Part shown: positions 23,648 to 39,956 of the stretch, piece by piece | How the letters are laid out: every line of letters starts with the position of its first letter | How positions within the stretch are numbered: position 1 is the first letter of the stretch | DNA from: Gemmatimonadota bacterium | GTDB taxonomy: Bacteria > Gemmatimonadota > Gemmatimonadetes > Palauibacterales > KS3-K002 | DNA: 41,762 nt | Reading direction: 5' to 3' | Assembly (NCBI GenBank): GCA_039586795.1 | Contig: JBDHJS010000053.1 | Span: 1-41,762, forward strand | Notes under the pieces: model-generated | The model's database searches: none | Told to the model about the DNA's origin: nothing | The model's input: the letters and a program-made list of their open reading frames with translations, nothing else | Made by a program: the position numbers and the translations under genes

Positions 23648-23874
23648 GGCGCACCTCTCGTATGGGGGATTCGATGCCTGCAGTGCTGAGATCATTCAGT
23701 GAAAAAAACGGGCCAGCCGACTGCGGCTAAATGCCGCATTTCTAAGGGTGTTTGAGCCGAAGGAAGGGGGTCACGATCCGCTCCCTGTTCGGTTTCGGGA
23801 CACCCTATCCCAGACTCGACCAGTCAGGAGGGCCTCTATGCCAACCTATTCGGGTGGCAAGAGGGTCTCACCCG

Positions 23875-24001: not shown

Positions 24002-24334
24002 ATGTTTAGCGCCGATCTGAAACGCGGGAGCATGGAGCTCTTGATCCTTTCTTCCCTCGAAGGCTGCACCCGACATGGTTACGAGATTGGAAAGCTCCTG
24101 GAGCACCGCTCTGGCGGCCAGCTCGAGTTCCGCGTCTCCACCCTCTACTCGGTTCTCTATCGCATGGAAGAGCGGGGTTGGATCAAAGGACGCTGGGTAG
24201 AGAAGAAGGGCGAGCGACGCCGCTGCTACTACAAGTTGACTCGGAAAGGCGAACGGATTCTGGTCGACCAGCGAAAGGAATGGAAGGCGTTCTCGACGAT
24301 GGTGAATCAGGTGATTGGAGTGAGCCATGCCTGA
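24002..24334 (+). CDS. PadR family transcriptional regulator (ADOP-associated type)
   Basis: LKRGSMELLIL, RHGYEI, TLYSVLYRME..GWI, RRRCYYKLT..G, WKAF; overlaps the permease start. Confidence 0.92.
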   Translation: MFSADLKRGSMELLILSSLEGCTRHGYEIGKLLEHRSGGQLEFRVSTLYSVLYRMEERGWIKGRWVEKKGERRRCYYKLTRKGERILVDQRKEWKAFSTMVNQVIGVSHA

Positions 24335-26048
24335 CTGGAAGAGATACCTGAAAGAATACCTGTCGCTCCCGGAGATGAAGGGACACAGGGAGCAGAGGAT
24401 GATCGACGAGCTGGCGGACCACCTGGAAGATCTCTACCGGGAGGCTGTGGCGCGTGGAGCCAGCGAAGAAGAAGCGATGGCCCAGATAGAAGAATGGCTA
24501 GGCGAGGCCGGCTTTGCATCGGGCGAGTTGGTGCGAAGCGAGCCCGCTCATGTGCGGTCCCGAATGAATCGCTGGGTGGAAGGACAGGAAGAGATGTTGC
24601 GGAGCAAGGGCGGCGCGCTCAGCCGAGTGGCCGACGCAGGCCGAGATCTGCGCCTCGCCCTTCGAACCCTGGCGAAGCGACCGTTCTTCAGCGGCGTGGT
24701 CATCTTCGTGTTGGCGTTGGGAATCGGGGCGACCACGGCGGTCTTCACGCTGGTAGACGCGATCATCCTTTCGCCGCTTCCGTTCGACGATGACACGCGC
24801 CTGGTGGATATCGATCACGCGGCGCCAGGGCTGGGAGTGCAGCAAGCCGGTCAGTGCGCGGCCTGGCACTTCACTTACGAAGACGAGAACCAGGTCTTCG
24901 AAGACCTGGGGATGTATGGAACGGGCTACGCGACGATCGCTGGGCAAGGCACACCGGAGTCGGTGCCCGACATGGGTCTGACGACCGGGGTGTTGCGGGC
25001 GCTTCGTATCACTCCCGTGGTTGGTCGTCTGCTGATGCCAGAGGACGAAGAACTCGAAGCGCCGAACGTCGTGCTTCTGGGCTACGGATACTGGCAGAGC
25101 AGATTCGGCGGCGACCTCAATGTGGTCGGGCAGACCCTGGAGGCGGACGGAAACTCATGGGAGATCGTGGGCGTGTTGCCGAGCGACATTCAGGCGCTCG
25201 GATCGGATCCGGCGATCATCTACCCCTACCGATTTGACCGCTCTCAGCTGTTCGTCGGCAATATCGGGTTCGGAGGCGTAGCGCGTCTGCGTGACGGTGT
25301 CACGTTGGAGCAGGCCAACGCCGACGTGGCCCGCATGCTTCCTTTGGCGTTTGAGAAGTTCCCCGGCGGTCCGGTCGCCGACTTTTCCGAGCGTGCCCAG
25401 TATTCTCCGAATCTACGCCCCTTGAAGGAGACGCTGGTCGGCAGTGCGGCCAGCCTGCTCTGGATCATCCTCGCCGGAGTGGCGGTCGTCCTGCTCATCG
25501 CCTGCGCCAACGTTGCGAACTTGTTCCTGGTACGCGCCGACGGTAAGCAAACAGAGATGGCGGTTCGCTCGGCCCTGGGCGCGAATCGGCGTCGCATAGG
25601 TTGGGAGTACCTGAAGGAGAGTCTGTTGCTGGGCTTGCTGGGCGGAGCGGGTGGTCTGGCTCTAGCGGGTTATGGACTCGACGCGCTGATCGCGGCGGGG
25701 CCGGCTAACCTCCCGCGCCTGAACGAGGTCTCGATACACCCGGGCGTTCTGATGTTCACGCTGGCCATCTCGCTGGGCGCCGGTCTCTTCTTCGGCGTGT
25801 TTCCGGTGCTCAAGCACAGCGGCGCCGCGATGCTCGATTCTCTGAAGCAAGGTGGGCGTGGCGGAACGACGGGTCGGGCTAGCTACCGAGCGCAGAACGC
25901 GTTGGCCGTGAGCCAGATGGCTATGGCCTTGGTGCTGTTGGTCGCCTCGGTCCTGGCGCCCTTTGCGAGGATGCGCTCCGCAAAATCCAACCGCTGCTGG
26001 ACATCTTCCAGCTGCGTTTCCACCTCGCTGCTCAGCGTCTCGAGTTGA
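24327..26048 (+). pseudogene. ADOP-type ABC permease with N-terminal prefix domain, 3'-truncated
   Basis: IDELADHLED prefix, DLRLALRTL, LALGIGATTAVF, LLIACANVANL. Family similarity ends at SQMAMALVLLVAS (~25950) and the remainder is antisense of the neighbouring gene, so the second periplasmic/FtsX half is missing. Confidence 0.8.
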
Positions 26049-26342: not shown

Positions 26343-26585
26343 TTACGGCTCGGGTACTAGGATCCTAGATGAGTTCAGGATAGTAGGCTTTGTATCGATT
26401 CTCCCTTCTTCGTATAACGGCATCAGTTCATCTCTGCGATCCTTCCGCTGGAAGAAGTCTATTGCCCCCGCGCAGATTCCCCAGATACTGCCCAGTGTTA
26501 TTGTACATCCTCCGCCAATAACCAATACCGTTTTGCCAAGCACGAAGAGCGCCTCGATGGTTTCTGGGTCCATTTCGTCCCTCAT
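26343..26585 (-). CDS. Small single-TM hypothetical protein, last gene of the cytochrome operon
   Basis: ATG overlaps the upstream stop (TGATG at 26583-26587; alternative ATG 26573). Hydrophobic, Gly-rich segment LFVLGKTVLVIGGGCTITLGSIWGICAGAI. Confidence 0.55.
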   Translation of the reverse strand: MRDEMDPETIEALFVLGKTVLVIGGGCTITLGSIWGICAGAIDFFQRKDRRDELMPLYEEGRIDTKPTILNSSRILVPEP

Positions 26586-27802
26586 CAGTTCTGGCGTTGC
26601 GCTGCAAAGAACGCAGCGATGTCGGCCATCTCTGCAGCGCTAATGACCGGCCAGAGGACAGCAAGGCTGTCTCCGGATTCCATGGGCGCCCAGTGATTCC
26701 ACACGGCAGAGATCACCGCCGCTGGCGAACCGGTGCACTTGCTCTCAGCTAGATTGCCGGCGACCCTCGCCCCTTGGTCATTGAGCGAGTGGCAGGTCAG
26801 GCACCCTTTGCTCTGCAATAGCTGGCGTCCCGCTCGAGGGTCACCGGACTCGGCGAAGTACTGAACGGAATACAGATACGCGACAAGATCGGCCATTTCC
26901 CCGGCCTCGAGTTGAGGCACTCGTATCCCGCGAGCTTGCATCTCAGCGGTCATCCCTGGCGCTTTGTTCCACATGGCAGCCGCGAACTGTGTCAGATCCC
27001 AACGAACTCCACGGCTAGCCAAGTCCGGTCCGACGCGACCTCCCGTGCCTTTAACGCTGTGGCACTCTGCGCAACCACTTCCCGTAAATATGGTTCGACC
27101 GATATCCGCATCGCCTGGCAACACATATAGCGGTCCACCCAGGGGCGGCGGCGATTTCGATTCGAGGTATGCGATGAGATCCGTGAGTTCTGAGCCCGAG
27201 AAGGTCGGTCGTTCGATTCCTTTGGCCTCCATCATGCTCTGCATGCTAGGGCCGTGATTCCACATCGCTGCAGCAACCAAGATCGGTGAGCCAAACTGAC
27301 CGAGGTGGTCCAGGCTGGGGCCCGTCACGCCTCCGTGCACGCCCACCTGGTGACACACGACGCACTTCTTCTCGACGAAGAGCTGCTCGCCGGCTTCCAC
27401 GTCACCCGGCGGGTCGAAGTAGTCCAACGTGAACAGAAACGCTACCAGATCGCCTGCTTCTCGCTCATTCAATCTTGGGCGCGCGATGCCAAGCTCGCGC
27501 ATCTGTTCTCCCATGCCAGGCAAGTGGTTCCACATGTTGGCGGCTAGATCGTAGAACGACCGGCGTATTGCTACGTGGCCCAGGTCTGGTCCGAGCGTTC
27601 CGCCCAATCCATCCACTGAGTGGCACTTGACGCAACCCTTCGAACCGAAAACCCGAGAACCGGCCATCGCATTCTGTGTATCTCCCGCCCGCTCTTGGGC
27701 GTGAGCCGGCTGGTGAACGCACAACAGAGACAGAACAACGGCGAGGCTCGACGCCAACGTGGCGCCGCCAGTCAGCCTGATTGGTTGGGGCGTGCCAATC
27801 AT
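26585..27802 (-). CDS. Periplasmic tetraheme cytochrome c (four tandem class-I-like domains)
   Basis: Signal peptide (AHA-QE); CVKCH, CVVCH, CAECH and CLTCH, each in a ~95-aa repeat with a GPxL-like motif and WN-x4-M; SD GGAGG before ATG 27802. Confidence 0.9.
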   Translation of the reverse strand: MIGTPQPIRLTGGATLASSLAVVLSLLCVHQPAHAQERAGDTQNAMAGSRVFGSKGCVKCHSVDGLGGTLGPDLGHVAIRRSFYDLAANMWNHLPGMGEQMRELGIARPRLNEREAGDLVAFLFTLDYFDPPGDVEAGEQLFVEKKCVVCHQVGVHGGVTGPSLDHLGQFGSPILVAAAMWNHGPSMQSMMEAKGIERPTFSGSELTDLIAYLESKSPPPLGGPLYVLPGDADIGRTIFTGSGCAECHSVKGTGGRVGPDLASRGVRWDLTQFAAAMWNKAPGMTAEMQARGIRVPQLEAGEMADLVAYLYSVQYFAESGDPRAGRQLLQSKGCLTCHSLNDQGARVAGNLAESKCTGSPAAVISAVWNHWAPMESGDSLAVLWPVISAAEMADIAAFFAAQRQN

Positions 27803-27913
27803 GGTAATCCTCCATGTCCCGCAGTACTCGTTCGAAACTCTGCACCTCGTAGGAGCGTACACTCTCGCTGACTTGATGGCCCGCTTCCGGGCCGGTGGAA
27901 TCCCTGGGCCGCA

Positions 27914-29122
27914 TCAATTGCCTGCGGCCAAGCGTCTCAGATAGACGGTGAGGTCTCTCATTTCCGTCCCCTCGAACCGGGGCCAGTCTACCTGTTCGAG
28001 TTGAATGACCGTGTACATCGCGGGAGCGTGGTTCCACATTGCCGTCGCGAGCTTCAAGGGCGCGAGTATCGCATCAGACTCAGAAAGATCGGGCCCGAGC
28101 GAGCTTCCACCTTCAAGCGCGTGACAGTTGGAACAGCCCTTCTCTCTAAAGACCACCTCACCCGCGTCTGCGTCGCCTCCAGTATCGTAGAACCGCAAGT
28201 AGTAGAGAAACGCAATGACGTCTGCCATCTCGCTGCCCTGAAACCGTGGGAAAGCAATTCCCCGGGCCTGCATAGCCGATGCCATCTGCGATGAATGATT
28301 CCACAGCGTGCCGGCAATCTCGGAGACACGTAGCCGTTGGGTCGCTCTGTGCAGATCCGGTCCGTACGCAGTGCCGCTGCCGCTGGATCCGTGGCAGTTC
28401 GAGCACCCTCTGTCACGGAATAACTCTCGACCGGAGTTGGGGTCGGGCGGCTCGAGAAGGAGGACGTCGCGACCTTGGAGATTCGAACTCTGTCGGATGT
28501 AGGCTTGGATATCGGCGATCTCGCGCCCACCGAACGTGGGGATTGGAACACGCTGTGCGGATTGTTGCGCCTGCATGGCGGGCCCGTTGTTCCACATGCC
28601 TTCCGCCAGCATGATGGGGGCGATATAGCGAGCATAGTCGTCGAGGGGCCGACCCGTTCGGCCGCCCTCGCCGCCAACCGAGTGGCATTCAACGCAAAGC
28701 TTCTCGCGGAACCACCGTTCGCCCAATAGCGGATCCCCTGGCTCGTCGAACAACTTCACGTAGTAGATGTAGCTGATGATGTCAGCGAGCTCGGCCTCGG
28801 TGAATGTCGACCATTGAAACCCCCGGTCTCGGACGGTTTGAATCATCCGAGGCGTGTGGTTCCAGAACATACCCGCTAGTTGCTGCAGACTGCGCCCAGC
28901 ACCGACTAGGGCAAAATCAGGACCGAGCGTACCCCCGTTGCCCCAGATCGCGTGACAACGACCGCAGCCTCGCTCCACAAAGATCCGACGCCCGGCGATG
29001 GGGTCGCCGAGGAGCGATAGCTCGGATTGAGCGTGCGCAATGTCGACTCCCGCCACTAGAACGCAGCAAAGCATGCCAACACAGGATATCACCGACATCC
29101 GTTTGACAGGTGAGTTGCCCAT
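27914..29122 (-). CDS. Periplasmic tetraheme cytochrome c, paralog of 26585-27802
   Basis: Signal peptide (AHA-QS); CGRCH, CVECH, CSNCH and CSNCH in the same repeat architecture; start overlaps the NrfD stop (TGATG). Confidence 0.9.
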   Translation of the reverse strand: MGNSPVKRMSVISCVGMLCCVLVAGVDIAHAQSELSLLGDPIAGRRIFVERGCGRCHAIWGNGGTLGPDFALVGAGRSLQQLAGMFWNHTPRMIQTVRDRGFQWSTFTEAELADIISYIYYVKLFDEPGDPLLGERWFREKLCVECHSVGGEGGRTGRPLDDYARYIAPIMLAEGMWNNGPAMQAQQSAQRVPIPTFGGREIADIQAYIRQSSNLQGRDVLLLEPPDPNSGRELFRDRGCSNCHGSSGSGTAYGPDLHRATQRLRVSEIAGTLWNHSSQMASAMQARGIAFPRFQGSEMADVIAFLYYLRFYDTGGDADAGEVVFREKGCSNCHALEGGSSLGPDLSESDAILAPLKLATAMWNHAPAMYTVIQLEQVDWPRFEGTEMRDLTVYLRRLAAGN

Positions 29123-30492
29123 CACGCTTCCTCCGCGGCCGCCGCAAACGCGTCGTCGGGCAGGTACTCGGCAACGCGTTCAGCAGTTTCGCGCACAGAC
29201 TGTTCTCGCCCTTCCTTGATTTCCCAGATCGAGACAATTGGGACGAACTTGGTCGCGATCATGTACAGTAGGATGAATCCTGAAAAGGTTGCCGCCATAA
29301 TTGACAACTCGACCCACGACGGGAGGTAGTTTCCGATCGACTCGATCTCCCAACGCGGGTTCACAGATGTCGGAACCACGATGTTGAACCGCTCCAGCCA
29401 CATGCCAATCATCACTGCGATTCCGGCGATCAGAGTTCCCCGAGGCGTTCTCATCGATTGCCGCGACATCAGTGCGAGCGGTATGAAAAAACAACCCAGG
29501 ACCATAGCCCAGAAGGGGATCGCGAAGGGCCCGGTCAACTTCGCCCAGAATGCGCGCATCTCCCCAGGCTCCCCACCGTAGAATGCCGTCAGGTACTCGG
29601 CGAAGGTGAAATAGAACCAGAGCAAGCTAAACAGAAGGAGCAGGCGGCCGAGGTAGTCGAAGTGGATGAGTTTAAAGTACTGTTGCAGACCGAATGCTCG
29701 TCGCAGCACGACCATGGCAACCAGAATAGCCGCAATGCCCGAGTAGATCGCGCCCATGACGAAGTAAGGTCCAAAGATGGTGCTGTGCCACATGGGGCGG
29801 AGCGTCATGGCGAAAATCCAACCGATCACCGTGTGGACGGAAACCGCTATCGGGATCACAATGATCGAGAGAACACCAATCACTCGCTCGAGCCGCGCAC
29901 GCTGCGCCGGCGTATCGCGGTAGCCGGCTGCCAGAAACCGGTACAGGCGTGGCGCCTTTATACCCGAGTCTCGAATCACCGCTAGGTCGGGCAACAAGGG
30001 GACGTAGAGATAGATTGTACACGCTGTGAAATAGAGACTGATGCTTATGACATCCCAGAGGAGCGGCGACAGCATTTGGGCGTGCACGACTACGTTCATC
30101 ACCCTGTCGGGTCGGCCGAGGTCAAGTATCGGTTGAATGGCGCCGAAGCCGATGACCAGGACTGTGATCAATTCCGCGGAGCGAGTAATCGAACGTCTCC
30201 ACTCCGCCTTGCTGACTCGGAGGATGGCGGAGATCAAAGTCCCGGCGTGACTTATCCCAATGAAAAAGACGAAGCAGATGATGTAGATACCCCAATAGCT
30301 GGGGCGATTCAGGCCGGTCCGGCCAAGCCCGTAGCGAACCTGCACGTAGTACGAGAAGATCCCCCAGATCGTGATCGCCGCGAGCAACGTCGCAACGACG
30401 TAGAAACCACGCGACGTATCGACCAGCGGCCTGAGAAGGACCTGCTCGTCGGCCGACATGCGTGCAAGTCTTTGTTTCACGTCTTGGCGCAT
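29122..30492 (-). CDS. nrfD: NrfD/PsrC family quinone-interacting membrane subunit (ActC/QrcD-like)
   Basis: About 10 TM segments; WGIYIICFVFFIGISHAGTLISAIL, WRRSITRSAE, DLGRP, SPLLWD, SVHTV, WHSTIFGPYFV.GAIYSG, GMWLERF, KFVPIVSIWE. Confidence 0.92.
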   Translation of the reverse strand: MRQDVKQRLARMSADEQVLLRPLVDTSRGFYVVATLLAAITIWGIFSYYVQVRYGLGRTGLNRPSYWGIYIICFVFFIGISHAGTLISAILRVSKAEWRRSITRSAELITVLVIGFGAIQPILDLGRPDRVMNVVVHAQMLSPLLWDVISISLYFTACTIYLYVPLLPDLAVIRDSGIKAPRLYRFLAAGYRDTPAQRARLERVIGVLSIIVIPIAVSVHTVIGWIFAMTLRPMWHSTIFGPYFVMGAIYSGIAAILVAMVVLRRAFGLQQYFKLIHFDYLGRLLLLFSLLWFYFTFAEYLTAFYGGEPGEMRAFWAKLTGPFAIPFWAMVLGCFFIPLALMSRQSMRTPRGTLIAGIAVMIGMWLERFNIVVPTSVNPRWEIESIGNYLPSWVELSIMAATFSGFILLYMIATKFVPIVSIWEIKEGREQSVRETAERVAEYLPDDAFAAAAEEA

Positions 30493-30493
30493 C

Positions 30494-31177
30494 TCATTCT
30501 CTCGGTCGCAGGTAGTAGACTTTCGGCTGCGTTCCTAAGTCCTCCATCAAGCGCATCGCTCGGGGGTCCTCTTTTAAATCGGCGACCCTGTGACTCGGGT
30601 TATCGAGGTCGCCGAAGACAATCGCACCAGTAGGGCAGACATCGGCACAGGCAGGCTGATAATCCTCCTCACGCAGCTCGCGGTCCTCGGCGCGGGCATC
30701 TTCGCGTGCTTTCTGAAGTCGATGATGACAGAGTGTGCATTTCTCTATGACACCCTTTGACCGTACCGACACGTCCGGGTTCAGGTGCTGCCGCTCGGTA
30801 TCGGACCATTGAGGTCCGTACCAGTTGAAGTATTTGACCATGTATGGGCAGGCGTTGGCGCAGTACCGGCAACCGATGCAGCGCGGATAGATCTGGCCCA
30901 CTATGCCTTCGCCATCGATGTAGGTCGCCTGGACAGGGCAAACCCTGATGCACGGCGGGTTGTCGCAGTGCATACAAGGGCGAGGGTAGAAGTGCATCGT
31001 CGTATCTGGAAACTCTCCTTCCAACTCCGCCATTACCCTCATCCAACTCATCGCACGACCTGCATCCGCCTGCTCGGGCGAGACAGTGGAGATGTTGTTC
31101 TCGCTCTTGCACGCTACCTCGCACGCCGCGCAGCCAGTGCAGCGGTCCAGGTCGATCACCATTCCCCAGCGCGCCAT
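30494..31177 (-). CDS. 4Fe-4S dicluster electron-transfer subunit (QrcC/ActB2/PsrB/NrfC-like)
   Basis: Start MARWGMVIDLDRC at 31177; CTGCAACEVAC, CMHCDNPPCIRVCP, CIGCRYCANACP, KCTLC...CADVCP give 16 Cys. Confidence 0.93.
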   Translation of the reverse strand: MARWGMVIDLDRCTGCAACEVACKSENNISTVSPEQADAGRAMSWMRVMAELEGEFPDTTMHFYPRPCMHCDNPPCIRVCPVQATYIDGEGIVGQIYPRCIGCRYCANACPYMVKYFNWYGPQWSDTERQHLNPDVSVRSKGVIEKCTLCHHRLQKAREDARAEDRELREEDYQPACADVCPTGAIVFGDLDNPSHRVADLKEDPRAMRLMEDLGTQPKVYYLRPRE

Positions 31178-31191
31178 AGCCTCGTGCCCCC

Positions 31192-33552
31192 TCACGCTCT
31201 TTCGAGGCGAACAAACGTGGAAGACCAGGCTGGAAGTCCCGTCAGTTCGTCGTGCGTGTCGTCGAGCAATTGGAGTGGATTTGCCGGCTCCCCATCGGGG
31301 TGACGGGGTCCGTACGGCGCACAAACCGTCTCCGGTGCCGTGCCGAGAGACAGCTTGAGGCGCGCTCGATACCGACCACGCGATGATACGACCCATACCA
31401 TCGTGTCGTCTCCGAATCCCAGGGCGCCTGCTGTCTCCGGCGCCACCTCGATCCAGGGGACCCAATGGACCTCGGGGAAGATGGCCGGTTGCTCAACGAG
31501 CCATCGCTCGAGACCCAGAGTGCCTGAGGCGAGAGTGGATACGCGATAGGGTATGAGCCGCAACGGAAAACCTTCCGAGTTCGCTTCCTCGTCGTCCGCG
31601 ACGTCGACGTAGAGCCCTCGCGGCGGTTGCTCCTCGTCCAGATGGCGCAACAATTCCGCCGGCATGAGTTCGATCCGGCCGCTGTCCGTTTGGGAAAGGC
31701 GGAGAGGATCCGTTTCATCGTAGAACAGATCAGTCCAGCCGCCGCGCTCGATCAACTCCTCCCAGAACGATTCGAAATCGGCATGCTCGGCCAGCCACCA
31801 GCCGCGCTCCTCCATCTGACGATGGTGCCTCCGCTCGAACTCGTTGCCCAGCGTCATGCCGTGGCGGACCGAGAAGAGACCGCGAGCCCTTTCTCTGAGG
31901 AGCTCTAGGAAGCTTTCGTGCGGCAGGCTGTCGCTGACACTGCCGCCCAGACTGCGAGCGAGCGCCAGTACGGTGTCTCCGGCGTGCGCCGCGCCCGCTG
32001 GCGGCTCCACCAACGGCTGGGCCAGCCCCCAGACCGGATACGGGTAAGAGATCGGTGTCGGCGCGTCCTGCCAGCGCTCGTACGCCAGCAGATCGGGCAG
32101 AATCACGTCCACGTAGCTCGCGGTCTCGTCGGGAAATGGTGAGAAGCTGACCACGAACGGGATCTTCTCGAGCGCTTCGCGCCATACAGATGGGTTCGTC
32201 GACGAAGCGATCGGGTTCGCGTAGTAGAGTAACAACGCCTCCACCGATGCTTCCCCACTGGCTACGGCCTCTGCGAAACGGGTTGTATCCCTATTTCCGC
32301 CGAACGAAGGCAGGGGAGCGCCGATCGGTTCGCGACCGAGGCCAGCTCGTCCTGTGTCGTCCAATACAGGTGGCGGCAAAGGTTTGATCGGGGCATCATC
32401 CCCAAAAAGCACCCCTCCCGGTCGGTTGATGTTTCCCGTTAGCACGTTCAGGCTGTGCACGGCCAAGCCTGCAAGCAGCCCATTCGGTGCGAACGTGACG
32501 TCTGTTCCGCAAACGGCGACAGCCGGGCGATCCGTAGCGGCGAACGCCCTGGCAAGTGAGGTGATCCGCTCAACAGGCACTCCTGTTATCGCGGAAACCT
32601 CCTCGGTTCGGTAGTTGCTCGTCACTAGCGATCGATAGCCCGCGCGGAACTGGCCTTTCGCATCAACGAAGTCCTCGAAGCCGCTAACGTGTCTTGCCAC
32701 GAAGTCGGCGTCGAACAATTCGTCCCTTATCAGTACGTAGGAGATTCCCAGGGCGAGCACGGCATGGGTTCCCGGCCGCACGCCGACCCATTCGTGGGCG
32801 CGCGCAGCCGTACGAGAGAAGCGTGTGTCGACCTGGATGAAGCGTGGGCGTGTTGCCCCATCATCATCGGGGCTCGCGAAGGCCACGAACGCTTGGAGCG
32901 GAGACCACCAGGACTCGAACAGCGGAGCGCCGAACGAAAGCACCAGCCGGGCACGGTCCAGGTCGTAGCTGGGTCGACGCCGGATGCCGTGCATGAGCCC
33001 CATGACCGCGTCGGTCCCGTCATCGTACTCATCGGTCACGTGGTTCGGCGATCCGAAGGAGCTCATAAACTGATGCCAAAGGTCGCGCATAGTGCCGGCG
33101 CTGTATCCAGCCACCAGCGCCAGCGCCTCAGGCCGCCCGCCGGCCCTGAGCGATTGAAGGTGCTCGCTGACGCGCGACACAGCCGCCTCGGGCGTAGCGG
33201 TCTCCCACTGGTCGGCGCCGCGAGGGCCGGCGCGCACCAAGGGCGCGGTGAGCCGATCCGGGTGGTAGAGCATCTGCACCCCGGCGATGCCGCGAGGACA
33301 GAGGCCACCGCGGCTCAGAGGGTGCAGCGGATTGCCGTCAATCCTGACAAGGCGTCCGTCAACCAAGCGGCCTCTTGTGCCGCAACGCGAGGGGCAGATC
33401 AAGCAGGCGGAATTGCGTCGGTCTTCGATCCCGGGCGCCCACCCGGCCTCCGGTTCTTCCGATGTCCAAAGAACGTCCTGCGTCCCCGTCAGCGCTACCG
33501 TAGCTGCGGCAGCACCCATCGTCCACACGAACTCGCGCCGCGTGGGGCTCAT
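31192..33552 (-). CDS. Tat-exported molybdopterin oxidoreductase-family subunit (QrcB/ActB1-like)
   Basis: Tat motif TRREFV; C-x2-C-x3-C-x27-C; YHPDRLTAPLVR, FGSPN, DTRFSRTAARA.EW...RPGT, GNINRPGG, DVILP; C-terminal dinucleotide-binding-like barrel. SD GAGGAGG. Confidence 0.9.
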   Translation of the reverse strand: MSPTRREFVWTMGAAAATVALTGTQDVLWTSEEPEAGWAPGIEDRRNSACLICPSRCGTRGRLVDGRLVRIDGNPLHPLSRGGLCPRGIAGVQMLYHPDRLTAPLVRAGPRGADQWETATPEAAVSRVSEHLQSLRAGGRPEALALVAGYSAGTMRDLWHQFMSSFGSPNHVTDEYDDGTDAVMGLMHGIRRRPSYDLDRARLVLSFGAPLFESWWSPLQAFVAFASPDDDGATRPRFIQVDTRFSRTAARAHEWVGVRPGTHAVLALGISYVLIRDELFDADFVARHVSGFEDFVDAKGQFRAGYRSLVTSNYRTEEVSAITGVPVERITSLARAFAATDRPAVAVCGTDVTFAPNGLLAGLAVHSLNVLTGNINRPGGVLFGDDAPIKPLPPPVLDDTGRAGLGREPIGAPLPSFGGNRDTTRFAEAVASGEASVEALLLYYANPIASSTNPSVWREALEKIPFVVSFSPFPDETASYVDVILPDLLAYERWQDAPTPISYPYPVWGLAQPLVEPPAGAAHAGDTVLALARSLGGSVSDSLPHESFLELLRERARGLFSVRHGMTLGNEFERRHHRQMEERGWWLAEHADFESFWEELIERGGWTDLFYDETDPLRLSQTDSGRIELMPAELLRHLDEEQPPRGLYVDVADDEEANSEGFPLRLIPYRVSTLASGTLGLERWLVEQPAIFPEVHWVPWIEVAPETAGALGFGDDTMVWVVSSRGRYRARLKLSLGTAPETVCAPYGPRHPDGEPANPLQLLDDTHDELTGLPAWSSTFVRLERA

Positions 33553-33568
33553 TCAGCTCCTCCTCGGA

Positions 33569-34117
33569 CTAGCGGTGGCAAGCGTTGCAGTCCAGTGTCT
33601 GTCCCGCGTCGCGGTGGCAATCCATGCAGAAATCCATATCGATCTTCACCAACGCTCGGTCGGGCGGACGTTCGGTCTCGGCGATATTGCCGTGGCAGAT
33701 GTAGCACTCTAGTTCAGCAATCCCCACATGGCGGCGGTGCGTGTAGAAGACGTGGGGTGCAAGTCGGAACAGCTTGTTGAAGATGAGCGGGTCGCCTTGC
33801 TCTATCAGCGTAGTGACGCGAGCTGCCTCGGCCGACGTGCCTTGCGGGGTGGTGTGGCACATCCTGCAGGTTCGCGCACCCGGTAAACCGGCGTGGGCGC
33901 CGTCCTTCAGGTACGCATGACAGAATTCGCAGTTGAGCTTGAGATCCTCCGTATGCTTCAAGTGGTTGAACGCCACCGGTTGTGGGACCGGCGGGGCGCC
34001 CTGCGCAATCAGAGTGAAGCCAATCGCTACCGTCAGTACGATCGCGAGCGTTAAGACGCCCCACCGGGCACCTGCAAACCCGCCCCGGTCTGTGCTGTCA
34101 CTCAGCCTCTTCACCAT
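33569..34117 (-). CDS. Membrane-anchored pentaheme cytochrome c (QrcA/ActA-like, c3-type)
   Basis: One N-terminal TM helix; QPVAFNHLKH, CEFCH, CRMCH, HVFYTHRRH, CYICH, MDFCMDCH, CNACHR. Confidence 0.93.
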   Translation of the reverse strand: MVKRLSDSTDRGGFAGARWGVLTLAIVLTVAIGFTLIAQGAPPVPQPVAFNHLKHTEDLKLNCEFCHAYLKDGAHAGLPGARTCRMCHTTPQGTSAEAARVTTLIEQGDPLIFNKLFRLAPHVFYTHRRHVGIAELECYICHGNIAETERPPDRALVKIDMDFCMDCHRDAGQTLDCNACHR

Positions 34118-34310
34118 CTCTAGATCTCAGTTTCGTATTCGCAGTCGACAACACGTCGGTTCGGATCTGGCGTACGAGCGATGCTGAAGAAAGACTCGAG
34201 GTAGCCGTTGGCTACCGGAAGTGGCCGGCCGAGGAGCGTGCCATCGTCTTGTGTCGACGAGTCTCTGGAGGCTTATAACGCTCCTCAGCCTTGCCGGATT
34301 GCTTCTACCC

Positions 34311-35990
34311 TTAGGGATCCGGGTATGTGGTCGTATTCGTTAGCGCCAGGTACAGATCCAGAATGTCAGCGATGTCGGTTAGTAAGCTCCCCATGGACGT
34401 GCCCGGCTGTCCGAACTTGACCTTGTGCTGCACTTCGTACGGCTTCGCTCGGAGGAAGCTTCCCACCGAGAAGCTCCCGTCCACTAGGATTTGCCTACCG
34501 TCCGAGCCGTGACAGGCAGCACAGTTGGCTGTGTAAATCGCATCACCATCCCCAGCGTTACCACCCGCGCCGATGTTCGAGTAAGTAATCGAACCAGACG
34601 GGTAGTTCCCGGAGGTGACGAAGTCGTAAAGGAGATCGGTGTCTAGCGCCTCCTCCTTCAGGAACTTCACCAGATCCCAGACCTGCTCCTCCGTCATGAT
34701 GTCACTCAGGTCTGGCATCTGGTCGCCGACCGTTGAGTTCGTCACCGGATCGTAGGTGGAGAGATCCGCGCTCACCGGACGCCGACCGGTGGACGTCCAC
34801 AAGGCGTCGAACAGTTCCTGCTCGTTCATCGCCGCCGTGGCCGTCTTCAGGTTCAGCGAGGACACGTTGGGCCGCGTTGTGCTCGGCGCGCGGCCGATAT
34901 ACGAAGCCGCGTTGCCCAATCGGTCCCACGCGTGGCACTGCTTGCAGCGGAAGAAGTTCGAGTAGGTGTTGAACGTCGCCAGGTTGGGATCGCTCTGGTC
35001 CCAGCCCGTCTCTGGCGTCCAGAACTTGTCGTACATCGTCCCGCCGTTGATGCCGCTCGCCAACTCGAAAGCTGGATCCGGATACATCGTCTCATCTGTC
35101 AATGCAGCGTAGAGATCCAGTATGTCGTTGATGTCCGTCACCAGGCTCCCCATGGACGTGCCCGGTTGTCCGAACTTCACCTTGTGCTGTACTTCGTACG
35201 GCTTCGATCGCAGGAAGCTGCCCACAGTGTATTCACCGTCTACCACGATCGCCCGCCCGTCGGTGCCGTGGCAGCCGGCGCAGTCGGCTGCGTATATCGC
35301 GTCGCCGTTGGTGGCGTCGCCGCCCATACCGATATTCGAGTAAGTGACTGACCCGGTGGGGTACGTTCCGGTGGTCGAGACGTCATAGAGCAGTTCAGTA
35401 TCGTTCGCCTCTTCTTTCAGGAACTTCACGAGATCCCAGATCTGCTCGTCCGTCATGATCTCACTCAGGTCCGGCATCTGATCGCCAACGGTCGAGTTCG
35501 TGGCCGGGTCATACGTCGACAGATCCGCACTCACCGAACGCCGTCCGGCTGAGCTCGAGAGCGCGTCGAACAGTTCCTGCGGCGTGTGATGCTCTGAGTG
35601 CTCAATGAGATCAACAGAGGACACGTTCGGCCGCGTTGTGCTCGGCGCCCGGCCGATGTACGACGCTGCGTTACCCAGCCGGTCCCATGCGTGGCATTGC
35701 TTGCAACGGAAGAAGTTCGAGAAGTTGTTAAAGGTCGCCAGGTTCGGATCGCTCTGATTCCACCCCGTCTCCGATGTCCAGAACTTGTCGTACATCGTGC
35801 CACCATTGATGCCATCGGCGGCCGTGAACTCGGGCGGGTCATCCGGTGGACCTGTCGTCTCATCGTCGTCGCACGCAGCCGCGCCGACGACTAGGAGAGC
35901 TACAAGCGCCAGCGCTAGGGTCTTGTAGCTTGGGATGGCCATAGCTCCCACACCCCGTGCGTCGCGAGACCACCGCAATCGATTGAACAT
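34311..35990 (-). CDS. Tetraheme cytochrome c lipoprotein made of two tandem diheme modules
   Basis: SD AAGGAGG before ATG 35990 (alternative ATG 35942); lipobox AAAC; CKQCH, CAGCH, CKQCH, CAACH. Confidence 0.9.
   Translation of the reverse strand: MFNRLRWSRDARGVGAMAIPSYKTLALALVALLVVGAAACDDDETTGPPDDPPEFTAADGINGGTMYDKFWTSETGWNQSDPNLATFNNFSNFFRCKQCHAWDRLGNAASYIGRAPSTTRPNVSSVDLIEHSEHHTPQELFDALSSSAGRRSVSADLSTYDPATNSTVGDQMPDLSEIMTDEQIWDLVKFLKEEANDTELLYDVSTTGTYPTGSVTYSNIGMGGDATNGDAIYAADCAGCHGTDGRAIVVDGEYTVGSFLRSKPYEVQHKVKFGQPGTSMGSLVTDINDILDLYAALTDETMYPDPAFELASGINGGTMYDKFWTPETGWDQSDPNLATFNTYSNFFRCKQCHAWDRLGNAASYIGRAPSTTRPNVSSLNLKTATAAMNEQELFDALWTSTGRRPVSADLSTYDPVTNSTVGDQMPDLSDIMTEEQVWDLVKFLKEEALDTDLLYDFVTSGNYPSGSITYSNIGAGGNAGDGDAIYTANCAACHGSDGRQILVDGSFSVGSFLRAKPYEVQHKVKFGQPGTSMGSLLTDIADILDLYLALTNTTTYPDP
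34314..35831 (-). repeat. Intragenic tandem duplication, 2 x 759 bp (253 aa)
   Basis: Unit 1 is 35073-35831 (EFTAADGINGG...YPDP) and unit 2 is 34314-35072 (AFELASGINGG...YPDP). Gap-free alignment; about 55/253 aa differences by hand count (~78% identity). Confidence 0.92.
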
Positions 35991-36078
35991 GTCCGCTCCT
36001 CCTTTTGGTAGGCTGCTGCAACCATCGAGATCCGATTTCGGCCAGGCGGGGGGTTGGGGCCTGCCGCGGGTTAGGGAG

Positions 36079-36095
36079 AGCAGGTCTCGTACCAG
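36079..36095 (-). promoter_or_regulatory. Sigma-54 (-24/-12) promoter for the cytochrome operon
   Basis: Minus strand CTGGTACG-AGAC-CTGCT with exact GG-N10-GC spacing, ~90 bp upstream of ATG 35990; adjacent AT-rich IHF-like tract at 36101-36137. Confidence 0.7.
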
Positions 36096-36167
36096 TCTTC
36101 CATAAACTGTAACTCATTATAGGGTAGCAATTTATAGGACTTGGTCGCGAGTGGGCCTGGGCTCTAC

Positions 36168-36206
36168 AGGGGCAAATCCCCCACCTTGAGTGGGGGATTT
36201 CACCCG
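36168..36206. promoter_or_regulatory. Paired upstream activating sequences for a sigma-54 enhancer-binding protein
   Basis: AGGGGCAAATCCCCCA (36168-36183) and TGGGGGATTTCACCCG (36191-36206), inverted and 23 bp apart; they contain a perfect 11-bp inverted repeat AAATCCCCCAC-N5-GTGGGGGATTT. Confidence 0.62.
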
Positions 36207-36269
36207 CTCGCTGGCCTCCAAGCATCGCTCGTGGGCCGGTAAAGCCTTATTATTCGGCTGGTCCCTCGA

Positions 36270-36285
36270 CGGTACCGTTCTTGCC
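36270..36285 (+). promoter_or_regulatory. Sigma-54 (-24/-12) promoter for the two-component operon
   Basis: CGGTACC-GTTC-TTGCC with exact GG-N10-GC spacing and canonical TTGC, upstream of the receiver gene. Confidence 0.55.
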
Positions 36286-36362
36286 CAACTCGTGAATGGG
36301 CAAAAGACCCACACCACGGAATTCAGTTGGAACGGCCGGCAATCGGGAAGGTTGGACTGAGA

Positions 36363-36737
36363 TTGGGCAGGAAGATCGTTGTGGTGGATGACGATCGCTT
36401 GGTCTTGCAGAGCGTATCGGTTGCGCTGGAGGAGAGCGGGTTCGAGGTATGGGCAACCGATTCAACCGAGAAGGCGGTTGAGCTGAGCCGGGAAGTTGAG
36501 CCGGATGTAGTGGTGACAGACTTCAGGATGCCGGGTATGGATGGGGTATCGTTGCTCGAGCAACTGGAGGAGCAGGCGGCGGTTCGGCTGATGCTGGTGT
36601 ACAGTGCGACGCCGCCGCCTAGGGGCCGGCTGACTCGGCGATTGCGTGAGGTGCACTGGGTAGCGAAATCAGCTGGGCACGAAGGCCTTCTCGGGAAGCT
36701 CTACGATATTCTGGAGGACAGCGTTGACCGGCGATAG
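36363..36737 (+). CDS. Single-domain response regulator (receiver)
   Basis: KIVVVDDD, phospho-Asp in VVTDFRMPGMDG, YSA, VAK. Start uncertain (TTG 36363 or 36327). Confidence 0.85.
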   Translation: MGRKIVVVDDDRLVLQSVSVALEESGFEVWATDSTEKAVELSREVEPDVVVTDFRMPGMDGVSLLEQLEEQAAVRLMLVYSATPPPRGRLTRRLREVHWVAKSAGHEGLLGKLYDILEDSVDRR

Positions 36738-38580
36738 GTCCTGGCGGTCGTTGTGGAAGAGGGCGCCGCTTTGGAGCGGGCTCGGTCGCCGGATACTGCT
36801 GTGGTTCCTCGTACTTTCGCTCGTCCCTCTGTTCGTCTCGAATAGCGTTGGCTACGTCGTAAGCCGCGGGATCATTGACCGGCAGATACGACGCTATCTG
36901 CGCGCTCTCGCCGATGTTCAAGCTCAGCAAGTGACCGCAGAAGTCGAGCGCCATCAGGTATTGCTTGAGGGCATTGCCGCTGGCAACCGTACTCTCTTTC
37001 AGGGAATCCCCTCGGCGACCGCATCGCTGCAGACTGGGGGGCGCGAGGAAACGTCTCTTACAGAAATCCGGGCGCACCTCGCTCACGAACTCGAGGAACT
37101 GAGGTCGCTAGCCGAACTCTTTGTCATCGACACGGCTGGACTGGTGATCGCGGCGACCATCAGTGGCCGGCATGGACAGGACTGGTCGGGCACCGAGCTC
37201 TTCCGCCGCGGCCGCGTCGAGCGGTACTTCGCTGCGGAGCGCGACATGTGGGGCCGCCACTCCGAGCCTCTATACCGGCTGGCGGTTCCGATACGGGACG
37301 AGCAGCAGAGACTGTCCGGCGTGCTCGGTGGCTCGGTGAGTTTCGACGGGCTTCGAACGTTCCTGAGGCTTCCCGAGCATCCGGCTGTCGACGTCCACGC
37401 CTTCATCGTAGACCGCCAGGGTTACCCCGTGTTCTTCTCGCATTTGCACACCCCCTTTGACTTCGAGCGGTCTCTCCCATCGCCGCTGATCGATCAGCCG
37501 CCGGGCTCGATGGCCCGCTACGTCAACTATGAAGGCGTCGAGGTCGTCGGCACTTCGGTAGAGGTACCTGATCTTCCGTGGATGTTCATCTCCGAGGTTT
37601 CGGTAGCCAGCGCCCTTGGTGAACTCCGTGGCCTTGCGCTGCTGGCCGCCGCGATTGAGAGCGTATTCGCCCTCCTACTTGTGGCTGTGGTCTGGACCGT
37701 GGCGCGGTCAATCGTCACTCCCCTACGGCGCTTGGTCGGTGCGGCCGAGCGTATTCGCGAGGGCGATCTGGGTGTCGAAGTCGAGATAGAACGAGACGAT
37801 GAACTGGGCCATCTCGGCCATACATTCAATCAGATGTCCAGCGAGCTTCAAGCGTCGACGCACCAAATCGAGGAGCTTCACGAGCAGGAGATGCGTCGGG
37901 CGGCACAGCTGGCCTCCGTGGGCGAGTTAGCGTCGGGGATAGCGCACGAGATAAAGAACCCGCTCGTCGGTCTGGCAAGTGGGGTCGATCTTCTCTCGAA
38001 ACAACTTGGGGAAGATCCAAAATCGGCGGCTGTTCTGGATTTGATTTACGCGCAAGTCCGCCGTATCGAGTCGGCAATACAAGATTTGCTCAGCTACGCC
38101 AGTCCTAAAGAGCCTCTTCTTACTTGGACGGACCCGAAGCTGCTGGTGGAAAAGCTCGTCGCCCTGGTGCGTCATCAGGCCGAGGCAGCGGACGTGCGAA
38201 TAGAGCAGCAGATCGCTGACTCAGTTCCAACAATCCGAGTCGACCCGGAACTTCTCTCCCAAGCGCTGGTCAACCTCGCTCTCAATGCAATCCAGGCGAT
38301 GGGGCCGGGCGGTGTACTTCAGGCTTCACTCGAAGCCACCGACAACGCGGTGCTCTTCTCGATCTCCGATACTGGAGCGGGGATCTACCCCGATGACGTA
38401 GACCGGATCTATCGACCGTTTTACACCACTAAACATCAAGGCACAGGACTTGGCCTGGCAATCACAAGAGGGATCGTAGAGCGCCACGGTGGCCGGATCG
38501 AGATCGAGAGCAGGCCAGGCGAAGGCTCGACGTTCACTCTCGTCATACCGGCGAAACCGCAGGAGGCACTTGTGCCATGA
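36724..38580 (+). CDS. Sensor histidine kinase (TM-dCache-TM-HAMP-HisKA-HATPase)
   Basis: Two TM helices flanking a ~270-aa Cache-like domain; HAMP (PLRRL...DELGHLG..FNQM), AHEIKNPL, NLALNAIQA, DTGAG, PFYTTK..GTGLGL. Confidence 0.93.
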   Translation: MTGDRSWRSLWKRAPLWSGLGRRILLWFLVLSLVPLFVSNSVGYVVSRGIIDRQIRRYLRALADVQAQQVTAEVERHQVLLEGIAAGNRTLFQGIPSATASLQTGGREETSLTEIRAHLAHELEELRSLAELFVIDTAGLVIAATISGRHGQDWSGTELFRRGRVERYFAAERDMWGRHSEPLYRLAVPIRDEQQRLSGVLGGSVSFDGLRTFLRLPEHPAVDVHAFIVDRQGYPVFFSHLHTPFDFERSLPSPLIDQPPGSMARYVNYEGVEVVGTSVEVPDLPWMFISEVSVASALGELRGLALLAAAIESVFALLLVAVVWTVARSIVTPLRRLVGAAERIREGDLGVEVEIERDDELGHLGHTFNQMSSELQASTHQIEELHEQEMRRAAQLASVGELASGIAHEIKNPLVGLASGVDLLSKQLGEDPKSAAVLDLIYAQVRRIESAIQDLLSYASPKEPLLTWTDPKLLVEKLVALVRHQAEAADVRIEQQIADSVPTIRVDPELLSQALVNLALNAIQAMGPGGVLQASLEATDNAVLFSISDTGAGIYPDDVDRIYRPFYTTKHQGTGLGLAITRGIVERHGGRIEIESRPGEGSTFTLVIPAKPQEALVP

Positions 38581-39956
38581 ACGCTCGAACTGTGGTCGCT
38601 GTCGTTGACGACGAGGAGCTCTTCCGAAGCTGGCTGAAGGAACACCTCGGCACGGCCGGCTACGCAGTAAGTGAAGCGGCGACGGGCGGCGAAGCTCTAC
38701 GTGTTGCAGCAGTAGAGAGCCCGGCGTTAATGCTACTCGACCTGCGGCTCCCCGATGCCGATGGCCTCGATCTCGTCACTCGACTTCATGAGATCGACCG
38801 TGATCTGGTGGTCATAATCGTAACGGCCTATGGACAGGTACAGACGGCCGTTCGGGCGGTGAAGGCCGGGGCATACCATTTCCTCGAGAAACCCGTGGAT
38901 CTGGACGACCTGCTCATCACTATCGAGAAGGGATTGGAAGCTCAGCGTCTTCGCCGGGAGATCGCGGCCCTCCGTACGCAGCATCGCTGGCAATTTGCCA
39001 ACGTCGAGTTTGTGGGCCGCTCTGGCGCCGCGCGAGAGCTTGCCGAGACGGTGGAGAAGGTGGCGCGCACGGAGGCGGCCACAGTTCTGCTCCAGGGAGA
39101 GAGCGGCACGGGCAAGGATCTCGTAGCGCGCGCCATTCACGCCCGCAGTAGTCGCAAGGATCAACCCTTCCTAGAGATCAACTGCACGACACTGCCTGAA
39201 CAGCTCGTAGAAGCGGAACTTTTTGGCCACGAACGCGGTGCTTTCACTGACGCGCGCGAGCGAAAGAAGGGCCTTGCTGAACTGGCTGACGGGGGAACGC
39301 TCCTGCTGGACGAAATCGGAGACATGTCGCTCGGCGCTCAGGCCAAGCTGCTGCGGTTCCTTGAAGATTCGAGGTTCAGACGGTTGGGAGGCACTGCCGA
39401 CATACCGGTTAACGTGCGGGTTATTGCCGCGACCAACCAAAAGCTGGACGTGGCGGTGGGAGAAGGGAGGTTTCGAAGCGACCTGTATTACCGGCTCAAA
39501 GTCGTCGACCTCTATGTTCCTCCGTTGCGTGAACGTCCAGAGGATTGCGCGCCACTGGCTCTCTACTTCGTTGAACAATTGGCCCGTGATCTGAAACGTG
39601 AGCCACCCACCGTAACCCCAGAGGCGATCCGTGTCCTGGAAGCTTACCATTGGCCAGGAAACATTCGCGAGCTTCGAAACGTGCTCGAGCGTTTGCTTAT
39701 CTTCGAAGAGACGGTCAATATCCTTCCGGAACACTTGCCGTTAGAGATCCGCCGTGCTGCTCTACCTACCAATGGAGAACGTCATATCGTCCAGCTCCCC
39801 GCCGAAGGCTTTCGCATGGAGGATGTTGAGCGCAATGCTATCGAGCAGGCCCTCGTGCGAACGGGCGGCAATGTGGCAGGTGCGGCTCGCTTGCTTGGTC
39901 TGAGCCGGGACACTCTCCGTTATCGAATAAAGAAGTACGAACTAAGGACGTCTTAG
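38577..39956 (+). CDS. Sigma-54-dependent response regulator (NtrC/AtoC family)
   Basis: Receiver (VVDDE, LLDLRLPD), GESGTGKD, ELFGHERGAFTDA, LLDEIG, FRSDLYYRL, WPGNIREL, Fis-type HTH; ATGA overlap with the kinase. Confidence 0.95.
   Translation: MNARTVVAVVDDEELFRSWLKEHLGTAGYAVSEAATGGEALRVAAVESPALMLLDLRLPDADGLDLVTRLHEIDRDLVVIIVTAYGQVQTAVRAVKAGAYHFLEKPVDLDDLLITIEKGLEAQRLRREIAALRTQHRWQFANVEFVGRSGAARELAETVEKVARTEAATVLLQGESGTGKDLVARAIHARSSRKDQPFLEINCTTLPEQLVEAELFGHERGAFTDARERKKGLAELADGGTLLLDEIGDMSLGAQAKLLRFLEDSRFRRLGGTADIPVNVRVIAATNQKLDVAVGEGRFRSDLYYRLKVVDLYVPPLRERPEDCAPLALYFVEQLARDLKREPPTVTPEAIRVLEAYHWPGNIRELRNVLERLLIFEETVNILPEHLPLEIRRAALPTNGERHIVQLPAEGFRMEDVERNAIEQALVRTGGNVAGAARLLGLSRDTLRYRIKKYELRTS

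Follow-up and report, generated by a model that had tools for sequence, protein, structure and literature searches.

A five-gene unit, A-B-C-D-cyt1, found in a sediment-type Gemmatimonadota bacterium (Palauibacterales; KS3-K002), is a real, widespread and functionally uncharacterized member of the radiation of cytochrome–quinone oxidoreductases that includes alternative complex III (ACIII; ActABCDEF) and Qrc (QrcABCD). It lies on a contig of 41,762 nt (JBDHJS010000053.1 of assembly GCA_039586795.1; C97 of our genome G000), analyzed whole and hereafter called the window, within a genome of 4.68 Mb that is 97.8% complete. The two studied extremes of this large radiation, ACIII and Qrc, run in opposite directions, and the determinants of direction and proton coupling are at issue. 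On the phylogenies of its subunits, the unit is a third lineage rather than a hybrid of the two, and the locus adds an altered quinone site, set in a scaffold like that of ActC, and a predicted sigma-54 switch dedicated to it. On balance, we lean towards a function in which this ACIII sister would oxidize quinol and give electrons of the quinol pool a second, inducible route to periplasmic cytochromes.

A five-gene core beside ACIII and Qrc

The window carries eight minus-strand genes divergent from three plus-strand regulatory genes. Open reading frames and Pfam matches (on the minus strand cytochrome c, c7/cIII, Molybdopterin with Fe4S4, Fer4 and NrfD) agree with the positions given in an earlier sequence-only reading of this DNA:

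33569..34117, minus strand: core A, ActA/QrcA-like pentaheme cytochrome c; five CxxCH motifs and a single N-terminal membrane anchor
31192..33552, minus strand: core B, subunit of the Mo/W-bisPGD (molybdenum/tungsten bis-pyranopterin guanine dinucleotide) family, exported by twin-arginine translocation (Tat), unfused, 786 aa; FS0 cysteines C50/C53/C57/C85 and Asp178
30494..31177, minus strand: core C, iron-sulfur subunit with 16 Cys; likely start ATG at 31177, with a GTG upstream at 31195
29122..30492, minus strand: core D, NrfD-family membrane subunit, sister of ActC; quinone-site positions D124 and I226
27914..29125, minus strand: core cyt1, secreted tetraheme cytochrome of four class I domains (CxxCH ... 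WN-x4-M) with predicted His/Met hemes
34311..35990, minus strand: accessory tetraheme lipoprotein, 559 aa; tandem pair of diheme units, predicted lipid-anchor Cys40
26585..27862, minus strand: accessory cyt2, second secreted tetraheme of the cyt1 family, 38% identical to cyt1
26343..26585, minus strand: accessory small membrane protein, 80 aa, one helix, family-less
36079..36095, minus strand: sigma-54 -24/-12 promoter element, 88 nt ahead of the lipoprotein start
36169..36205, no strand: 37-bp palindrome, conserved and found once in the genome; the sigma-54 activator is predicted to bind it
36327..36737, plus strand: stand-alone receiver protein (Pfam receiver)
36724..38580, plus strand: dCache-HAMP histidine kinase (Pfam dCache-HAMP-HisKA-HATPase)
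38577..39956, plus strand: NtrC-family sigma-54 activator (Pfam receiver-Sigma54-HTH)

Recounting gave the same 17 heme motifs as that reading (lipoprotein 4, A 5, cyt1 4 and cyt2 4; the lone CxxCH of C is part of an iron-sulfur motif and stands outside the tally), the same 16-Cys subunit and four WN-x4-M motifs per tetraheme, and the order pentaheme, B, C, D is indeed that of QrcABCD and ActA/B/C. Its description of tight junctions holds in part: TGATG overlaps join D to cyt1 and cyt2 to the small protein, and gaps of 16 and 1 bp separate A from B and C from D, but 193 bp lie between the lipoprotein and A and at least 51 bp between cyt1 and cyt2.

Scanning GTDB with D returned 550 stretches encoding a relative; locus counts rest on the best 80, which come chiefly from Gemmatimonadota and otherwise, at 66–70% identity, from Acidobacteriota and a few others. 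All 17 hemes, with two dedicated tetrahemes and the lipoprotein, had been taken as the system, yet only cyt1 proved fixed: it directly follows D in each of the 67 loci that extend 1.3 kb or more downstream, and the claim of a syntenically fixed tetraheme thereby stands. By contrast, a second tetraheme match comes next in 34 of the 60 loci with room for one (frameshift-split genes counted in), and the lipoprotein sits immediately upstream of A in 8/50. Nor is there support for cyt2 as a dedicated partner, as this genome has paralogues of it, at 62% and 55% identity, in two further multiheme clusters. The lipoprotein arose by a recent duplication in tandem of one diheme unit, the copies being 78% identical over 253 aa; its family is present in 17/80 loci, and single-unit diheme homologues are placed elsewhere in other loci. 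The 80-aa protein occurs in 10/80 loci, a kinase/regulator upstream in 27/50, and alternative carriers in other loci include a monoheme upstream of A (20/80) and a different diheme (17/80). From these counts, the conserved system is A-B-C-D-cyt1, with five genes and nine hemes, and the remainder would be exchangeable carriers; cyt2, the lipoprotein and the small protein are accessories, and the 17-heme form is a local elaboration. A remoter version (L130 and L131, B 30–32% identical) has a c554-type pentaheme after the tetraheme.

Among proteins of solved structure, D is nearest to ActC. It is 35–40% identical to ActC and matches the solved ActC chains at E values of 1e-56 to 1e-65 (best 8.5e-65). 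A quick tree was built from 47 NrfD proteins, with Shimodaira–Hasegawa-like approximate likelihood ratio support (SH-aLRT) and no bootstrap. In it, 16 rows of the D family form one group (93) beside 12 ActC rows (98), with D outside the ActC clade as its sister group (98). Six two-gene modules form their own clade (98) beside both, and all three lie far from the QrcD/HybB-like rows (99), where QrcD is one long branch (L161, the sole QrcD over its cut-off that was available). In the iron-sulfur tree, the C family, ActB2 and QrcC are unresolved sisters, while a FastTree of 65 large subunits separates the B family (99), ActB1 (100) and a QrcB-containing group (100) as spokes of a radiation that comprises at least 150 clusters at 50% identity by profile search. 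On the NCBIfam models for QrcA to QrcD, the four subunits score 84, 270, 313 and 33 bits against cut-offs of 180, 440, 400 and 570, and none passes. Because the subunit trees give separate groups and the Qrc cut-offs are missed, we read the unit as a third lineage. The NrfD and molybdopterin-family phylogenies nest the core in neither the Act nor the Qrc clades, and the earlier description of a Qrc/ACIII hybrid gives way to one in which each subunit has its own lineage. A Qrc-like B was considered and rejected: the QrcB model is unspecific and favors the fused ActB of the same genome (309 bits) over B.

Two relatives met in these searches deserve mention. The two-gene modules (L133-L138, six Gemmatimonadota genomes) combine an iron-sulfur subunit with a D-like NrfD protein (43–47%) that has a long C-terminal extension; they have no A or B, and often a monoheme and a sigma-54 pair. 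Locus L161 (G273:C90, Acidobacteriota) has QrcA and QrcD over the NCBIfam cut-offs, a QrcB that keeps the FS0 cysteines and a QrcC with 16 Cys; true Qrc has been reported in Acidobacteriota (PMC10564751).

The unit shares the A-B1-B2-C order with ACIII of Rhodothermus marinus (6F0K), Flavobacterium johnsoniae (6BTM), Roseiflexus (6LOD) and Chloroflexus (8K9E), but it has no actD, actE or actF, keeps B1 and B2 unfused, has its own sigma-54 system and encodes a secreted tetraheme where ACIII has the monoheme lipoprotein ActE. With QrcABCD of Desulfovibrio (Nitratidesulfovibrio) vulgaris it shares the order and four unfused subunits; the fixed partner is a class I tetraheme here and a type I cytochrome c3 there. 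The combination is not as novel as the sequence-only reading supposed, since related clusters are printed as genome annotations (PMC4643136, PMC12342949, PMC9386147). Split-ActB ACIII of iron oxidizers has, like the unit, a split actB and an ActB1 with a [4Fe-4S] motif (PMC4643136), and actB is also split in Nitrospirales ACIII, where the gene set described has no ActF/G (PMC12342949); as annotated, both keep ActD and ActE, and the iron oxidizers also ActF, none of which is present here. Cluster 4 of MBNT15 SHF-111, likened here by description only, is ACIII-like, remote from oxidase genes and equipped with a four-heme 'ActE-like' protein; its description includes ActD and proposes Fe(III) reduction (PMC9386147). 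The literature search returned no biochemical study of the arrangement and no report of sigma-54 control; the ACIII surveys of Refojo and Yanyushin may list the arrangement.

The absence of actD/E/F applies to the unit and not to the genome: all three belong to a complete ACIII on another contig (G000:C102:175900-183600; actA, fused actB, actC, actD, actE, actF and a small gene), which, like the unit, has no adjacent oxidase, and two heme-copper oxidase subunits I are encoded elsewhere. ActD/F matches in 4/80 loci each come from a neighboring full ACIII. Of 161 genomes sampled from the phylum, 150 have a D match at E ≤1e-40 and 14 have the close form (≥66%). All 14 also hold an ActC-type copy at 35–40%, and the unit is thus an addition to ACIII and not a substitute. 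Sediment Gemmatimonadota and Acidobacteriota have in it a second complex. The analysis supports the part of the earlier proposal that predicts, for a unit with no actD/E/F, a quinone-linked cytochrome c oxidoreductase within the ACIII/Qrc radiation.

Direction of electron flow

The quinone-site and channel residues of ActC have been tabulated, with His139, Ser164, Asp169 and Asp253 at the quinone site (PMC8076601). Of the channel residues on that list, D retains 12 of the 13 on the N side and 5 of the 6 on the P side (17 were checked by alignment, and the two that differ were read by hand). Its quinone-site equivalents are D124, S142, D147 and I226, of which D124 and I226 occur in at least 97% of 81 sequences. 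In C, all 16 Cys are invariant across 77 sequences, and the proximal motif is CIGCRYC in each of them, with four Cys, against CVGTRYC, with three, in 5/5 fused ActB. Besides its five CxxCH motifs, A has invariant H52, H55, H127, H130 and M161, from which we infer distal ligands of the ActA type (four bis-His hemes and one His/Met heme). Each of the four class I domains of cyt1 has a conserved Met, and its model consists of four helical class I domains (mean predicted local distance difference test score (pLDDT) 84). A fold search with this model found nothing at E ≤0.001 and no more than weak rows for class I cytochromes; sequence searches of the PDB with cyt1 and the lipoprotein, and an Atlas search with the lipoprotein unit, returned generic cytochrome c matches or clusters only. 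His/Met hemes are typically high-potential, and quinol oxidation by cyt1 hemes of this predicted kind would therefore be downhill.

Quinol oxidation is favored by the proximity of D to ActC, its retained channel residues, the ActA-type ligands of A and the conserved Met residues of cyt1. Membrane quinol would be oxidized at D, and electrons would pass through C's proximal iron-sulfur cluster and the pentaheme A to the secreted cyt1; the path through iron-sulfur clusters and pentaheme in ACIII serves as the analogue (PMC5928083). Cyt1 would take the acceptor role of ActE without a membrane anchor, and cyt2, the lipoprotein and other small cytochromes would act as exchangeable downstream carriers. 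The final acceptor would be periplasmic or extracellular and reached by multiheme chains, with no oxidase supercomplex. It is probably an anaerobic one, because cytochromes of at least eight hemes lie within 10 kb of the core in 18/80 loci and putative beta-barrel genes in 5/80, and because the core of one genome (G001) sits inside a nonaheme/barrel/nonaheme cluster.

Several observations weigh against this assignment. Only two of the four ActC quinone-site residues (Ser164, Asp169) are kept, His139 being replaced by Asp and Asp253 by Ile, and Asp at the His139 position is found in the quinone reductases QrcD (D120) and HybB (D109) (PMC8076601). The four-Cys proximal motif suggests a cluster of lower potential than the [3Fe-4S] cluster of ACIII; it is no proof of cluster type, because a [3Fe-4S] cluster has been seen by electron paramagnetic resonance in D. 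vulgaris QrcC (PMC6303296) and the proximal motif of the Qrc-type locus L161 likewise has four Cys. C is nearer the QrcC model than are the ActB2 domains, which score 202–208 bits on it. Multiheme conduits are linked to the core in a minority of loci, and kin loci are not independent; two genomes of unstated completeness that were reached via loci (G215, G216) yielded no second ActC-type copy. The structural likeness of B to ArrA and its invariant Asp178, treated in the next section, count on the same side.

Reverse, Qrc-like flow would start from periplasmic cytochromes loaded by an external donor, such as a mineral, reduced sulfur or a partner cell; these would reduce menaquinone, in a downhill reaction or with the proton gradient as driving force. 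Such a role is unlikely in our judgment but deserves serious weighing, given the Asp shared with QrcD and HybB, the four-Cys motif in common with L161, a canonical ACIII in the genome that already covers quinol oxidation, and the proposal of split-ActB ACIII as a reverse-flow complex in iron oxidizers (PMC4643136). The same Asp, however, occurs in the quinol-oxidizing PsrC and TtrC (PMC8076601), D groups with ActC and not QrcD and has its channel residues, and the predicted His/Met hemes would be poor menaquinone donors. Gene content points both ways: dsrA was found in 8/31 carriers versus 1/40 non-carriers (nine intermediate-form genomes set aside), but the other 23 carriers have no dsrA match, and sulfate reduction is therefore not required. 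No match to a NiFe hydrogenase was found in the 97.8% complete genome. No Cyc2-like gene was conspicuous among neighbor families recurring in at least 4/80 loci, although no Cyc2 profile search was made. With ActC channel residues in a unit that has no ActD or ActF, together with a Qrc-like Asp and a four-Cys motif, the lineage offers a natural test of whether pumping requires ActD and ActF, and of what determines direction.

The genome holds dsrAB/MKJOP, napA and many multihemes. Its dsr cluster (G000:C73:60000-74400) comprises dsrC-like, dsrMKJOP, dsrAB, dsrL-like and dsrN-like genes, and a short gene with no family match that we take to be dsrD-like. A putative porin–cytochrome conduit (G000:C53:171400-179200) contains two nonaheme lipoproteins, a further nonaheme, a cyt2 paralogue and a secreted protein of 503 aa, rich in aromatic residues and without a Pfam match, whose nearest named Atlas clusters are outer-membrane barrels (0.92); a homologue was found in 25/31 carriers and 18/40 non-carriers. 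At G000:C55:68550-74400, napA is accompanied by an octaheme matching the multi-heme Pfam PF13447 and by genes for cytochrome b and a Rieske protein, arranged much as in the Caldithrix Nap/eHao locus (PMC5317091).

Subunit B and the molybdenum question

B is probably a Mo-free scaffold with one extra iron-sulfur cluster, judging from its motifs. QrcB and ActB have both been described as Mo-free (PMC13059093, PMC10100899). An active molybdenum or tungsten enzyme with Asp178 as metal ligand, standing at the junction of a small-molecule substrate, the quinone pool and the heme wire, with the kinase sensing that substrate, is improbable. Were it so, B would be a periplasmic enzyme, the first in the ACIII/Qrc radiation to be catalytically active, and a chain of 9 to 17 hemes would link it to outer-membrane conduits.

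The case for activity begins with ArrAB (6CZ7) and PsrABC (2VPW), which are nearest to B in fold and sequence and also have FS0. The B model (pLDDT 92) matches ArrA best (Z 38.8, root-mean-square deviation 2.6, 703 aligned residues) and ActB less well (Z 29.4, 2.9, 583 aligned). The FS0 cysteines, the Tat signal and Asp178 are present in 67/67 sequences, and FS0 with its adjacent Arg/Lys in 65/67. Asp178 lies in the loop after GSPN, aligned with the Cys of ArrA and PsrA that we take to be the Mo ligand, so that it replaces the Cys of the Arr/Psr lineage. Asp178, present also in 84/84 pattern-matched close homologues (119 examined), stands in a D-x-Y-x-D motif that recalls NarG-type Asp ligation. 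Molybdenum cofactor genes are present as well (moaC in 30/31 carriers).

Other observations speak against catalysis. Asp178 sits just before a helix in the model and an Asp stands at the same count after GSPN in the fused ActB of the same genome, for which reasons a helix-cap role would suffice. Across 148 representatives of the radiation, the ligand position holds 19 residue types (D 21, E 18, S 16, G 15 ... C 6), while the FS0 cysteines are kept in 129/150 representatives and in 5/7 fused ActB. The pterin-pocket motifs of B are ActB-like and not ArrA-like: it has the ActB-type SFGAxxxExW (Trp after SFGA), and ArrA's polar motif in domain IV has given way to another sequence. Its pentaheme and tetraheme partners also set it apart from ArrAB and PsrABC, no TorD-like chaperone is among the recurring neighbor families, and Asp-ligated enzymes form a separate lineage (PMC10100899). 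As moaC is near-universal in the phylum (79/80 genomes), it is uninformative on B; the sole miss is a carrier (G178) that has moaA, moeA and moaE, and is probably an assembly gap.

Two further observations concern this protein family in the genome. The fused ActB on contig C102 keeps all four FS0 Cys, unlike the solved ActB structures, and a locus at G000:C73:12-3422 encodes a 1136-aa fusion of a molybdopterin oxidoreductase with a cysteine desulfurase.

A predicted sigma-54 switch and its surroundings

Sigma-54 control, as proposed from the sequence alone, is borne out at the level of prediction by a -24/-12 element, an upstream palindrome, an adjacent activator and rpoN, which is present in the genome. 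The element scores 12/14, a value reached by 6/1500 random 340-nt genome windows, and the palindrome lies ~75–110 nt further upstream; both are conserved in 9/9 aligned promoter regions. The AT-rich stretch between them we take to be IHF-like. Two loci that have no lipoprotein (L019, L020) keep promoter and palindrome, directly facing A. A weight matrix of the palindrome has a single match in the genome and tracks the regulators, with matches in 13/26 loci with divergent regulators (7 from the training set) versus 0/31 without; promoter scores of at least 11 were found in 13/26 and 5/31, respectively. The uniqueness and conservation of the palindrome, its link to the regulators, the conserved promoter and rpoN together support a predicted single-target switch. 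The dCache kinase would phosphorylate the activator, which would bind the palindrome and open the sigma-54 promoter. Such a single-target promoter, palindrome and kinase offer a direct route to the inducing condition, and hence to the acceptor or donor.

In the gap between the lipoprotein and A, no second sigma-54 or sigma-70 promoter and no clear terminator were found. The kinase lacks Cys and heme motifs, its pocket shows few conserved residues across 26 sequences, and no ligand was assigned to it. Four RNA runs contain exact pieces of 150–510 nt from inside and outside the operon; these are contigs in which DNA carry-over is possible, and they serve only to locate the organism, in samples of marine sediment or seawater. 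In three acidobacterial loci (L099, L109, L119), a same-strand upstream kinase has two CxxCH motifs, which hints at redox sensing. A near-identical -24/-12 element without the palindrome precedes another multiheme operon of the genome (G000:C79:71980, minus strand).

That carriers keep canonical ACIII, that the two operons are neighbors in 4/80 loci and that D keeps many ActC residues might suggest a Qrc/ACIII orthologue borrowing the ActD/E/F of the canonical operon as an isoform subunit set, but the separate B, C and D clades, the altered quinone site, the fixed tetraheme of a different family and the unit's own promoter make this very hard to credit.

Beyond the cluster, positions 21305-23695 and 24327-26048 of the window hold two MacB/FtsX-type ABC permease genes around a PadR gene. 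Both are apparently broken, the former by a frame shift near 21600 and the latter by an early stop.

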